Part shown: one piece after another, positions 3,664-6,802 of the stretch | Layout: each line of letters begins with the position of its first letter | Numbering within the stretch: the first letter of the stretch is position 1 | Source: a virus | Taxonomy: Duplodnaviria > Heunggongvirae > Uroviricota > Caudoviricetes | Length of the DNA: 32,197 bases | Reading direction: 5' to 3' (one strand) | IMG/VR virus record: IMGVR_UViG_2660237933_000002 | Coordinates: 1 to 32,197 of that record | Position numbers and translations under genes: made by a program | The notes under the pieces: model-generated | Told to the model about the DNA's origin: nothing | Seen by the model: the letters and a program-made list of their open reading frames with translations, nothing else | The model's database searches: none

Positions 3664-3963
3664 TCAAATAAGTGGTTTGCTGCCTAATTTCATTTTCTGG
3701 CGACCAACACAAGTCACACCCATTTCACTGCGTGGCTTGCGGTAGTAAATACGGTTCTGTTTACGCTCGACTTCTTCTGCCTTCTTGCAGCAAAGGCTTC
3801 CTAGTGATGCTGCTTTGTCTGCTCTGACGCAACCAGAGAGCTTTAGCGCAATTTTTCGCGCCAGTCGCTGCTCTTGCATTGCCTGTTCACGTTGAGCCTG
3901 TCTGCGTGCTCTGCGGCGATTTCTGGCGTTATCGTCAGCCAGATATGTAATGACTACTGTCAT
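3664..3963 (-). CDS. N: N-like transcription antitermination protein, 99 aa
   Basis: Arginine-rich motif NARNRRRARRQAQRE near the N-terminus; C-terminus YYRKPRSEMGVTCVGRQKMKLGSKPLI parallels lambda N (...YSKPGERGITCSGRQKIKGKSIPLI); GGAGG RBS 5 nt before the ATG at 3963. Confidence 0.8.
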   Translation of the reverse strand: MTVVITYLADDNARNRRRARRQAQREQAMQEQRLARKIALKLSGCVRADKAASLGSLCCKKAEEVERKQNRIYYRKPRSEMGVTCVGRQKMKLGSKPLI

Positions 3964-4068
3964 GTTGACCTCCGATGATTGACTTTGGCGGTGACGCGCC
4001 GGGTGCTTATCTTCCGGTTGCCGTCGTGCAGCTGCACTTCACATCACCCCAAAGCCAACTACTCTTTG

Positions 4069-4111
4069 GTTCCCGCATTTCGGCGGGACAATCCCATCAA
4101 TGTTAAAGAGC
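4069..4111 (-). promoter_or_regulatory. nutL: nutL: boxA-like GCTCTTTAACA plus boxB hairpin (TCCCGC-CGAAAT-GCGGGA)
   Basis: Minus-strand reading of 4069-4111; the same boxA/boxB pair recurs on the plus strand downstream of cro (nutR). Confidence 0.6.
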
Positions 4112-4149
4112 CTGCCAATCTGTTCCGTTTGGCTACCAGCGTCCTGCTG

Positions 4150-4245
4150 ATGGCTTAAAGATAACTTAGGTTATAGGCACGGTCAATAACCTAATTTATA
4201 TTTTGTGGTAAATAAGTTATAAGTGATGGATAACAAAGGTATTTT
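4150..4245 (-). promoter_or_regulatory. OL operators and pL promoter
   Basis: 14-bp palindromes of the ATAACnnnnGTTAT class at 4161-4174, 4186-4199 and 4230-4243; minus-strand TTGACC, then 17 nt, then TATCTT overlapping the first operator, mirroring the pR arrangement. Confidence 0.55.
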
Positions 4246-4360
4246 ATTTTTGTAAATGTTGCTGATTGATTGGTGTTTGAGGGCTTGCGTGCGGGTGAAG
4301 TTGTTACCTTTGGCTTGATGCTTGTCTATGATGAGGATGGGTGATTGGGTGGCGATCGTG

Positions 4361-4390
4361 AGGCAAAGAAAACCCGGCGCTGAGGCCGGG
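4361..4390 (-). terminator. Rho-independent terminator ending the two-gene cassette
   Basis: Minus strand CCCGGC-CTCAGC-GCCGGG followed by TTTTCTTTG, starting 8 nt after the stop of the 310-aa gene. Confidence 0.6.
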
Positions 4391-4397
4391 TGAGATA

Positions 4398-5330
4398 TTA
4401 AAGAACCGATTTAACAAGATGGTTTTTACGGTACAGACCTATGCGATCATTGTGAATCTCAGTAGTCTCCACTAAAAGAGAAACAATCTGTCCGACCTTG
4501 TGTTTTTTTTGTATTAAATCTAGCATTTCAATCGGATAGGAAGCCTTTAAATGTTCACCACCAACATCAAGCTCCAGCTTCCCATATTTGGATAGAACGA
4601 CCAGTTCGCCTGTAACCGTTTCAGTAATGGGAGGGGATGAAATGGTTGATGTAAGTCTACTCACCAAGTACTTAATTTTATTGGAGTCAATAGTTGCCAC
4701 CTTGGTGCCATTACTAAATGGACCGGTCCAACTTGCATCAAATGTTAAGTTGTGTTTATCGCATTCCTCTACGATTCTCTTAAGGCTTACAGTGGAATTG
4801 TATCCAATTTCAGCGACGTGATTCATGAAGTTGTTGTCGTCATCGCTTAACAACAAATCGAATATGCCTTTTACAGCCTTGCTGGGTACTGTTTCTACTA
4901 ATTCTGCTATTCCTGTAGAGAAGGTGACGCCCAATTTTGTAGACCCAGGGGATAAATCAGCCAGCCTGAGGTTTAAGGAGCTTTTCACGTCGTAGGGAAC
5001 TTTTTTTGAGTCCTTGCCTGAGGCAATTTTGTGTGTTGCTCTTTGTATTAGCGCTGCAAGATTTGTTGAAATAGCCCCAAGCAGCTCTAAAGGAATAGAG
5101 CCAAAGTCAACCTCAGAGCCTTTCAGCCGCAGCTCAAAAAAATCGATAAGTGGGTGCCGACTATCTTGCTTTAATTTTTCGGCCTTCAAATCGCTCAGAT
5201 GAGAATCCATGGAGCGATAAAGAAGCATGTCAGCAAAGGACCTGGTTTTGTTTTGCTTCATTGCATCGACTTCTTTTTGAATGAAATCAATGCGTTTATC
5301 GCAATTTTTAAACATTGATTTATCATTCAT
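4398..5330 (-). CDS. Hypothetical protein, 310 aa, second gene of the cI-adjacent cassette (no recognisable motif)
   Basis: Long AT-rich ORF; its ATG overlaps the stop of the upstream nucleotidyltransferase-fold gene (ATGA at 5327-5330). Confidence 0.7.
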   Translation of the reverse strand: MNDKSMFKNCDKRIDFIQKEVDAMKQNKTRSFADMLLYRSMDSHLSDLKAEKLKQDSRHPLIDFFELRLKGSEVDFGSIPLELLGAISTNLAALIQRATHKIASGKDSKKVPYDVKSSLNLRLADLSPGSTKLGVTFSTGIAELVETVPSKAVKGIFDLLLSDDDNNFMNHVAEIGYNSTVSLKRIVEECDKHNLTFDASWTGPFSNGTKVATIDSNKIKYLVSRLTSTISSPPITETVTGELVVLSKYGKLELDVGGEHLKASYPIEMLDLIQKKHKVGQIVSLLVETTEIHNDRIGLYRKNHLVKSVL

Positions 5331-5806
5331 AAAAAAATCCTCACTAACCCTTTCGGGTTTTCACTGCGATCAAAACCAAACCAACCGCGCCAGTAGCTAC
5401 GCCAGTACTCATAATCATAGTTAGGGTCATCTAAATTCTTCATGAGTAGTAGGACATCAATTTTGTAGTTTTGTTTGATGTAGTTTCGGTCAAGCAAATT
5501 ATCGACGCGGCCCCGAAGCATGACAGGTATTGAGTTTATATTGTTATAGTCACATACCAACAAAATATCAATATCATCAGGCTCTGGTTTAGACGTGGTG
5601 TATGAACCATCAACCCATATTTCTGTAAAACAGCCATATTGAGCAGATAATTCTCGAATAGATTCGAGTAGCTGTATAAAATTACAGTATAGCATGCCTC
5701 GCCTGGATGATGAAGGAAAGCAATCGACACAATACGATTTTAATCCAGCTTCATCCATGTCATGGAACCCTGGCTCAAACAGGGGTGGGTAATTAATTTT
5801 ATCCAT
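5327..5806 (-). CDS. Minimal nucleotidyltransferase-fold protein (Pol-beta superfamily), 159 aa
   Basis: GS-x10-DIDILLV motif (WVDGSYTTSKPEPDDIDILLV) plus a downstream KIDVLLL strand; Cys-rich N-terminal segment (CVDC...C); AT-rich. Confidence 0.65.
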   Translation of the reverse strand: MDKINYPPLFEPGFHDMDEAGLKSYCVDCFPSSSRRGMLYCNFIQLLESIRELSAQYGCFTEIWVDGSYTTSKPEPDDIDILLVCDYNNINSIPVMLRGRVDNLLDRNYIKQNYKIDVLLLMKNLDDPNYDYEYWRSYWRGWFGFDRSENPKGLVRIFL

Positions 5807-5920
5807 AAAAAACCTTGCTATACATTTGTTTTTTTTATTAAAAATCTAACCACCGAAATGGTGACGGCAAGATGTTACATGGGGTTACAATCAGCCAATA
5901 CACCGCATTAAATAATTTTT

Positions 5921-5962
5921 TCACCAGCTATGCGCCGACCAGAACACCTTGCCGATCAGCCA
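5921..5962 (-). pseudogene. Fossil 3' end of a second cI-like repressor gene (encodes ...WLIGKVFWSAHSW-stop)
   Basis: About 40 nt, roughly 31/40 identical to the 3' end of the intact cI (...IIGRVFWSSHSW-stop at 5984-6024), same strand and frame logic; an upstream in-frame stop shows it is a fragment. Confidence 0.55.
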
Positions 5963-5983
5963 AACGTCTCTTCAGGCCACTGG

Positions 5984-6691
5984 TTACCAACTATGAGACG
6001 ACCAGAATACTCTGCCAATAATCCTTACGGTTTCATGAAATTCATCTCTATCCATTACTTCATCCGGGTACTCTTCGCGATTTATTGATCTGATTATCAC
6101 CGACGTGGGGGTGGCGATTAATGTTTTTACTCGTAACAAATCAGACTGGCAAATAGCGTAGGTTTTACCATCTCTGATTGTGGTATCTTGCGTGTTAACA
6201 CCAACAACATCGCCATCGTGAAGCGTTGGTTCCATGCTTTGCCCTACAACCCTAACTAGCTTGGCTGATCTTTCAGATACCCCCATCTTTTTTAGATAGT
6301 GCTTTCTGAAAACCAAAGAGAACTCCGATGATTCCTCTAGCTCGCAGCTACCGCTTCCAGCTGAAAGCGAAACGTTAAGAAGAGGCAACGCAACAAACTC
6401 GTCATCGTTTCTTTTAATGTCTTCCCATACCACAGCTTTTAAAGATGACTCACGGATATTGGATGGTTCTTCATGTGCACCATCCCTCATTTCACCAATA
6501 CCAGAACTAAGCCATTCAGGGCGCACTTTTAAAGCATTGGCTAATTCAACCATCTTGCGAGATCCGTTTGTTTTACCGGACGACATCTTCTGTATGGCTG
6601 GCTGAGATATTCCAACCATGTCAGCAAGCTGTGATTGTGATACCCCAGCTGAGCTCATGGCTGCATTTAGTCTTTCTGCGAATGTTTTCAT
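5984..6691 (-). CDS. cI: CI-type prophage repressor (HTH_XRE plus S24 LexA-like peptidase domain), about 235 aa
   Basis: N-terminal HTH (SQSQLADMVGISQPAIQKM), Ala-Gly linker site, C-terminal GQSMEPT serine motif; I place the start at the ATG at 6691 (the track used an upstream TTG at 6721). Confidence 0.85.
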   Translation of the reverse strand: MKTFAERLNAAMSSAGVSQSQLADMVGISQPAIQKMSSGKTNGSRKMVELANALKVRPEWLSSGIGEMRDGAHEEPSNIRESSLKAVVWEDIKRNDDEFVALPLLNVSLSAGSGSCELEESSEFSLVFRKHYLKKMGVSERSAKLVRVVGQSMEPTLHDGDVVGVNTQDTTIRDGKTYAICQSDLLRVKTLIATPTSVIIRSINREEYPDEVMDRDEFHETVRIIGRVFWSSHSW

Positions 6692-6703
6692 ACCCACAAA
6701 TCT

Positions 6704-6779
6704 ATAACTACGGTTATCCAAAGTAAAATAACAAAGGTTATTGCTATTTTTTATAACTTGAGTTATCTTTGGTTATAAT
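6704..6779. promoter_or_regulatory. OR operators with divergent pRM and pR promoters
   Basis: Three 14-bp palindromes ATAACTACGGTTAT (6704-6717), ATAACAAAGGTTAT (6728-6741), ATAACTTGAGTTAT (6753-6766); pR candidate TTGCTA (6741-6746), 17 nt, TATCTT (6764-6769); TATAAT also at 6774-6779. Confidence 0.6.
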
Positions 6780-6802
6780 TAATGACCACAAGAGGTATGC
6801 TC

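Follow-up and report, generated by a model that had tools for sequence, protein, structure and literature searches.

Dead repressor tail ends stacked behind a live lambdoid cI gene and their probable part in the exchange of an accessory cassette

Why should the end of a repressor gene recur, imperfectly, a few dozen nucleotides beyond its own stop codon? The question is raised by a 32,197-nucleotide stretch of DNA from a virus of the Caudoviricetes (IMG/VR record IMGVR_UViG_2660237933_000002, positions 1 to 32,197; hereafter the window). A first-pass annotation had noticed, on the same strand and 63 bp past the cI stop, an imperfect copy of the cI 3' end at 5921-5962 with roughly 31 of 40 nucleotides identical. 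It had read the copy as a fossil duplicate left by a different cI allele that once ended here, and had proposed that the present cI, the adjacent cassette or both arrived by recombination within or next to the conserved cI C-terminus.

The live repressor gene occupies 5984-6691 on the minus strand and encodes a 235-aa protein with HTH and S24 peptidase domains (Pfam HTH_3 and Peptidase_S24), an identical protein being found in 305 blocks of a public assembly collection. A TTG at 6721 offers an alternative start, and a cro-like gene at 6782-7027 is divergent from cI. The protein ends in RIIGRVFWSSHSW at a TAA (5984-5986, minus strand), the last codons being AGG ATT ATT GGC AGA GTA TTC TGG TCG TCT CAT AGT TGG TAA. 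Nearly all relatives recovered in a search with the window cI end in ...IG[KR]VFWSSHSW, and we refer to this live end (5984-6025, minus strand), which is the upstream copy of the repeat, as the A-prime (A') type. The same codons hold a sigma-70-like hexamer pair that faces the cassette (TTGGCA, 17 nt, CATAGT; 9/12; 5990-6018, minus strand), with weaker counterparts in the downstream copy (TCGGCA / CATAGC); it is probably a chance match.

The downstream copy, termed relic A, spans 5921-5959 on the minus strand and reads LIGKVFWSAHSW up to a TGA at 5921-5923 (CTG ATC GGC AAG GTG TTC TGG TCG GCG CAT AGC TGG TGA). Aligned without gaps at an offset of 63 nt, it matches the live cI end at 33 of 44 nucleotides (5923-5966 versus 5986-6029), with the two ends in frame and their stop codons in register; over the span first reported the count is 31/42, so that the original estimate was about right. 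The similarity lies far beyond chance. When both strands of the whole window are scanned with the 44-mer, the second-best hit reaches 25/44. A score of at least 33/44 has a binomial expectation of ~3e-7 over the window, and in 20,000 shuffles of the downstream 300 nt no score rose above 27/44. Chance similarity is ruled out by this whole-window scan and the shuffles. Differences between LIGKVFWSAHSW and the live IIGRVFWSSHSW, each directly followed by its stop, fall mostly at third codon positions, and 10 of the last 12 residues are identical.

The ending preserved in relic A is also found alive. IGKVFWSAHSW followed by a stop is the exact end of repressors 56-65% identical to the window cI, for example in Cronobacter, and is shared by eight protein clusters (P0057, P0058, P0063, P0065, P0066, P0068, P0069 and P0075); at the DNA level, three of these live alleles give the best matches to relic A, at 31/36 nt. 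Among deposited phages no live 'SAHSW' cI closer than 60% was found, and none of these best matches belongs to a deposited phage genome. The proposal that a different cI allele once ended here is thus upheld, and comparison with other cI 3' ends, suggested as the way to the donor, has yielded live counterparts, with the exact donor not among them. We read relic A as the last 12 codons of a '...FWSAHSW'-type cI, and on all four counts considered it classifies as a pseudogene fragment of the 3' end of an S24-family cI. Its frame, like that of the second relic described below, closes a few codons upstream and has no plausible start codon, and the rest of the gene is absent.

The second relic lies between the two copies of the repeat. 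The offset of 63 nt is no mere spacer, nearly all of it being filled by a relic that had gone unnoticed, relic B (5956-5983, minus strand; CCAGTGGCCTGAAGAGACGTTTGGCTGA), the last 8 codons and stop of a lambda-type or VT1-Sakai-type cI. Relic B begins one base past the live cI stop, out of frame (+1) with the live gene, and reads C CAG TGG CCT GAA GAG ACG TTT GGC TGA, giving QWPEETFG and a stop, which is the lambda cI C-terminus; it is identical to lambda cI at 37227-37253. Relics B and A overlap by 4 nt, the stop of B lying inside the Leu-Ile codons of A. The +1 frame of the live gene is open for its last 17 codons, and a frameshift extension of cI into relic B was considered; with no slippery site or other support, it is unlikely.

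A scan of IMG/VR with the B motif, TGGCCTGAAGAGACGTTTGG, gave at least 120 occurrences. The motif is a live cI end in 85 of the 120 matches listed, of either lambda type (VVGKVIASQWPEETFG) or VT1-Sakai type (IIGKVVKAQWPEETFG), and a relic in the other 35, where it stands behind at least seven other ORF ends. Past the B stop codon, conservation in these listed matches is at once at background, with 40 distinct downstream 12-mers among 69 unique contexts, and many of the contexts diverge exactly at the stop codon. By this evidence relic B is recognizable as the dead last 8 codons of a lambda-type cI.

The two elements are present, joined in the same way, in lambda itself. Positions 5925-5982 (minus strand) form a 58-bp island with 100% identity to lambda 37196-37253 (NC_001416), that is, to the last 27 nt of cI and the first 31 nt of the cI-rexA spacer, and the flanks on both sides are unrelated to lambda. 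In lambda, relic A sits directly behind the phage's own cI stop, the cI TGA falling inside the relic's Leu-Ile codons as it does in the window. The B part, however, is the live cI end in lambda, whereas in the window it is dead and stands behind a third, live cI end, and the slot that holds rexAB in lambda here holds a cassette named PDC-M63. The lambda copy of relic A (37192-37227) carries a TGG to TGA change one codon before the original TAA stop (...SAHS followed by two stops), and HK544, which has lambda immunity, retains ...SAHSW and its stop. Relic A of the window can therefore be identified as widely shared lambda cI-rexA spacer sequence, and the B-on-A pair is old, being present in lambda itself; the unannotated 31 nt after lambda cI are a relic of another repressor.

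These comparisons bear directly on the simplest account of the repeat, a local tandem duplication of the present cI 3' end whose downstream copy then diverged. Two copies on the same strand, 63 nt apart, are what such an event would leave, but the downstream copy has 100% identity to the spacer between cI and rexA in lambda, recurs behind six unrelated cI types and bears the 'SAHSW' signature of a different live subfamily, and what separates the two copies is a cI end of lambda type. A tandem duplication is already refuted by three of these points, namely the match to lambda, the occurrence behind six cI types and the lambda-type end in the gap, and we give it practically no weight. The word duplicate was accordingly a misnomer: with 58/58 nucleotides shared with lambda, relic A neither derives from the present cI nor was made in this phage.

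Relic A follows cI in lambda, HK544, mEpX1, R18, HCP8S3 and L6-21, and it adjoins unrelated cassettes (rexA, ECs2991-like and PDC-M63). The stacks in which the relics occur vary in order and depth. In the window, the live A' cI end is followed by relic B, of lambda type, and then by relic A. H-19B has its own cI (...EWLKSS and stop), a 21-nt 'SSSHSW' fragment of A' type that includes the stop, and then B; E. coli PM7 adds relic A to an H-19B-like stack, for four layers in all, and then has the same cassette as the window. In NCTC13148 and G3/10, a cI ending ...FWYSVLRYRR is followed by B, ~70 nt, a second B, A and the cassette, and in L6-21 a cI ending ...VAVETKLRLV abuts relic A directly. An A- or A'-type cI followed by B is found in SH2026Stx1, Salmonella phage S.Kent, Cronobacter and Izhakiella, with the same junction as in the window (stop, one base, CAGTGG). 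B-like relics in Salmonella, Cronobacter and Izhakiella stand behind cI genes whose products are 57-83% identical to the window protein, and frame and stop are kept in two of the three; close cI relatives in a scan of genome contigs numbered only seven, and of these Izhakiella has relic B. Such stacks of two to four relics may be readable like strata, recording the order of past immunity-module replacements, and the three-layer stack of the window appears to be new in its combination.

The interval between the two B motifs of E. coli NCTC13148 holds, on the minus strand, a 24-codon ORF, (GTG)IREYLIVGVVTLLSVVAIVLMVA and stop, that also occurs in G3/10 and at several IMG/VR loci. It starts in the GGGTGA of the first B and stops in the GCCTGA of the second, and its product would be a small, strongly hydrophobic peptide, whose core sequence was seen 6 times among the fetched loci.

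Perfect conservation of the 58-bp island between unrelated flanks, and the persistence of B-like relics behind such distant cI genes, are also what a conserved cis-acting element would produce. Candidates would be a PRM RNA structure or processing site, a promoter or terminator of the cassette, a small ORF, the cI frameshift extension already mentioned or an aba-like self-immunity element as for BstA, for which a functional DNA element directly downstream of cI is known (PMC8585504). Against this, the predicted RNA fold of 5807-6030 is no better than that of shuffled sequence (z = -0.20), the relics have no match in Rfam, and their frames lack a start codon. The one Rfam match, far below the gathering threshold (17.8 versus 72 bits, E = 0.31), lies outside the relics and is not relevant. 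A search for promoters and terminators found none in the relics at 5921-5983; the two weak signals noted, the promoter-like hexamer pair in the live cI end (5990-6018) and a weak terminator-like hairpin at 5849-5868 in the cassette leader, lie outside them. Relic A is not specific to one cassette, because it also occurs next to rexA and other cassettes (ECs2991-like as well as PDC-M63), and an aba-like self-immunity element for the cassette was rejected on the same ground. Finally, copying from diverged live B-type alleles accounts equally well for the codon-like substitutions, and such copying, if repeated, would do the same for the survival of B-like relics behind distant cI genes. We regard a cis-acting element as very unlikely, and the earlier concern that the repeat might be a known functional site finds no echo in RNA folding, Rfam, promoter or terminator signals over 5921-5983. 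Relic A (5943-5954) and the leader (5865-5876) also hold the two arms of an inverted repeat of 12 nt, which was likewise set aside, a rough estimate giving about 0.4 chance pairs of this kind in 600 bp.

Beyond relic A, a cassette-specific leader of 114 nt (5807-5920, minus strand) extends to the first cassette gene and accompanies the cassette in every carrier examined. Both cassette genes lie on the minus strand: the first (5327-5806) encodes a DUF6932 protein, PDC-M63A (Pfam PF22014, E = 1.8e-24; PADLOC, E = 1.1e-41), and the second (4398-5330) a 310-aa protein, PDC-M63B (PADLOC, E = 7.5e-45), with no Pfam family match. With both PADLOC profiles matched by adjacent genes, PDC-M63AB is a candidate defence system only; in its sole published test, deletion in the native host had no defence phenotype (PMC12409345). 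The pair occupies the position of rexAB and presumably shares a transcript with the repressor. Of 5426 complete E. coli genomes, 18 carry the cassette, each at no less than 99% identity, and it lies under six cI types when the complete-genome carriers, phage mEpX1 and the window are taken together.

The far side of the cassette is bounded by a conserved segment (4341-4396, minus strand) with a tImm-like intrinsic terminator hairpin at 4372-4391, which is common to lambda, HK544, H-19B, SH2026Stx1, Stx1a_10051, 98192, mEpX1 and PM7. Its lambda counterpart lies just downstream of rexB, and the terminator at that place we take to be tImm. This left anchor and a right anchor at 5925-5983 thus bracket a variable cassette while being common to otherwise different phages. 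A cI protein identical to that of the window is seen with at least six cassettes including the present one, the at least five others being a 126-aa ORF, a 120-aa ORF, an SDH protease, a HigB-toxin pair and a 98-aa membrane protein. Relic B (with GGG TGA) forms the link to cI in four of them, and the fifth has no relic.

Comparison by blastn indicates different parentage for the cassette and its surroundings. The prophage of E. coli 98192 is 98.4-99.1% identical to the window over 3695-4392 and 99.83% identical over 5955-7139, and differs in the content of the slot, where it has an SDH-protease cassette. mEpX1 and PM7 are 99.4-99.5% identical to the window from 4354/4349 to 5982/6001, under other cI types. 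The matches to these proxy parents overlap at precisely two places, the B motif and the terminator segment, and on both sides the switch in parentage falls inside sequence common to both parents, with 98192 and mEpX1/PM7 as proxies. On the right, the alignment and the blastn breakpoints place the putative crossover within 23 nt common to both putative parents (5960-5982, minus strand; CAGTGGCCTGAAGAGACGTTTGG); the first donor-type base is position 5959, a C in the window and a G in 98192. On the left, the same proxies place it within 4349-4392, in the terminator segment. The homology shared amounts to 39-44 bp on the left and, with the proxies used, to 23-28 nt on the right, where the true parents may have had more in common, PM7-type stacks for instance sharing ~47 nt. 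The terminator loop of the window, TCAGC, is that of lambda and Stx1a_10051 and unlike that of 98192 and mEpX1, and at least one parent therefore differed from the proxies.

These matches, 98192 on the outside and mEpX1/PM7 on the inside of the slot, bear out the earlier proposal that the cassette arrived by recombination next to the cI C-terminus, as does the comparison of related prophages, 98192 carrying another cassette and mEpX1 and PM7 the same one. The proposed position of the junction is right in placing it beside cI; the putative crossover falls in relic B (5960-5982) and not in relic A.

Further to the right, beyond ~7369, the window resembles PM7 (97.5%) rather than 98192, and there is therefore another mosaic joint between cro and cII. 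After cro come cII at 7137-7430 (plus strand; Pfam Phage_CII, E = 2e-48) and an O-like replication gene at 7611-8432 (plus strand). A replicative helicase gene at 8429-10822 (plus strand) encodes 797 aa with DnaB N- and C-terminal domains and an insert that contains a LAGLIDADG homing-endonuclease domain (residues ~393-454); because the insert ends in ...VTHN, followed by T, it looks like an intein.

Neither 5426 complete E. coli genomes nor the 24 longest contigs with an identical cI contained the exact arrangement of the window, which therefore rests on one assembly. An assembly chimera, in which two co-resident lambdoid prophages were mis-joined at short shared repeats, would account for this absence and for the position of both junctions in repeats that are common among prophages. 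It would, however, need two independent mis-joins, at repeats of 23-28 nt and of ~40 nt, that happened to restore a colinear and functional-looking immunity region, and complete genomes (PM7, NCTC13148) contain natural stacks of a similar kind. We consider a chimera extremely unlikely.

From the relics and their live equivalents, the match with lambda, the repeated occurrence of the joint and the location of the switch points, we infer a history to which we assign a probability of roughly 0.75 as a whole: 5921-5983 is a two-layer stack of dead repressor tail ends behind a live cI, and the cassette was exchanged by a double crossover in short anchors. Each relic layer would go back to the arrival of a new immunity module whose junction fell slightly within the 3' end of the cI then present, and the relics on the right and the tImm-like terminator on the left (4341-4396) bracket a cI-N slot for lysogen-expressed accessory genes. 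One parent may have been a 98192-like phage with the window cI, relic B and another cassette, and the other an mEpX1-, R18- or PM7-like phage in which a cI end of B type, whether still live or already a relic, preceded relic A and the PDC-M63 cassette. One crossover within the 23 nt of shared B sequence (5960-5982) and another within the shared terminator segment (4349-4392) would have replaced the 98192-like cassette by relic A and PDC-M63. Judged from the sequence comparisons, such a double crossover in short shared anchors is the most likely route by which the PDC-M63 cassette arrived. The exchange would then be homology-driven, through Red or RecA acting on short homology, and not illegitimate, and the relics would thus work as adaptors that open the cassette pool of lambda-type phages to the window's immunity type.

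The lengths of the anchors set a limit to this reading. The minimal homology for RecA- or Red-dependent recombination is ~30 bp (PMC2327257); the left anchor is adequate by this measure and the 23-28 nt on the right are marginal. A homology-driven crossover on the right would be inefficient, because the shared stretch is at or below that minimum. The main rival is that the joining was illegitimate and was then filtered by selection on cI: products with an intact cI survive, other joints are purged and the relics are passive scars without a role in later exchanges. Like a crossover in relic B, such filtering puts joints at gene ends, and it is the classical model for lambdoid mosaic joints (PMC2327257, introduction). 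A shared B interval below the quoted ~30 bp fits it, the many contexts that diverge exactly at the stop codon are as intact-gene selection predicts, and one arrangement with the identical cI (L190, Stx1a_10051) has no relic and breaks at TAACC. It fits less well with the finding that identity between the window and each proxy parent stays at ~99.5-99.8% as far as the shared segment on both sides of the slot, since random end-joining would rarely hit shared sequence twice. Nor does it readily explain why the same B relic and the same junction (stop, one base, CAGTGG) lie between the identical cI and four cassettes, or why an island of 58 bp is 100% identical between lambda and the window amid unrelated flanks. 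We therefore judge purely passive scars to be unlikely. The recurrence of the relics at many independent joints suggests re-use and not one-off scars, and the relics, marking the spot at which cassettes and repressors are swapped between related phages, probably served as that spot.

A bolder version of the adaptor reading, about which we are doubtful, holds that the dead cI tails and the tImm hairpin together make up a 'docking' system for cassettes expressed in the lysogen, one that is maintained and recombinase-free. Repeated gene conversion from live lambda-type cI would keep relic B recognizable, and as an adaptor it would connect unrelated immunity types to the lambda-type cassette pool via Red/RecA short-homology recombination. 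The basis cited for it is that relic B follows at least seven unrelated ORF ends among the IMG/VR matches listed. Were it true, lineages that keep the adaptor would gain defence cargo faster, which would amount to second-order selection. In practical terms, the B motif (TGGCCTGAAGAGACGTTTGG) and the tImm hairpin could serve as paired markers for retrieving the cI-N cargo slot in prophage data during a search for new lysogen-expressed defence genes.

Set against what is known of phage mosaicism, the window resolves to the base level the passage of a single defence or accessory cassette among lambdoid prophages, with both switch points in short shared anchors, one of them a dead piece of a repressor gene. 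The comparisons of HK97 and HK022 by Juhala, Hendrix and colleagues reportedly attributed lambdoid mosaic joints to illegitimate recombination and selection. Joints with gene remnants, formed in that way, have been summarised (PMC2327257), and the window is like them in that its modules meet where genes end and the joint retains short dead pieces of the gene that was displaced; it differs in that a single site here has accumulated three to four layers. The kind of feature is thus known, as gene remnants at lambdoid module boundaries in the cI-N hotspot, and no new mechanism is involved. Within the searchable literature, whose scope does not extend to Degnan et al. 2007 (Mol Microbiol 64:232), we found no explicit description of the relic.

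The proposed model of module exchange via short conserved flanks, or linkers (PMC2327257), is a second point of comparison. The window likewise has islands of identity (58 bp on the right, ~40-50 bp on the left) that bracket a variable cassette; unlike the linkers of that model, its right-hand linker is the dead 3' end of a repressor gene and not a dedicated sequence, and its 23-28 nt are at the low limit. As for the slot itself, the cI-N interval is described as a hotspot of mosaic diversity in the part of PMC8585504 that cites Degnan 2007, and it holds rexAB in lambda and bstA in BTP1 (PMC8585504). The window shares with this accessory and defence slot a variable cassette directly downstream of the repressor, and with the defence hotspots of P2 and P4 (PMC9122126) a slot for variable cassettes. 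In contrast to both, the present finding concerns the joint and not the cargo, which is a candidate system only.
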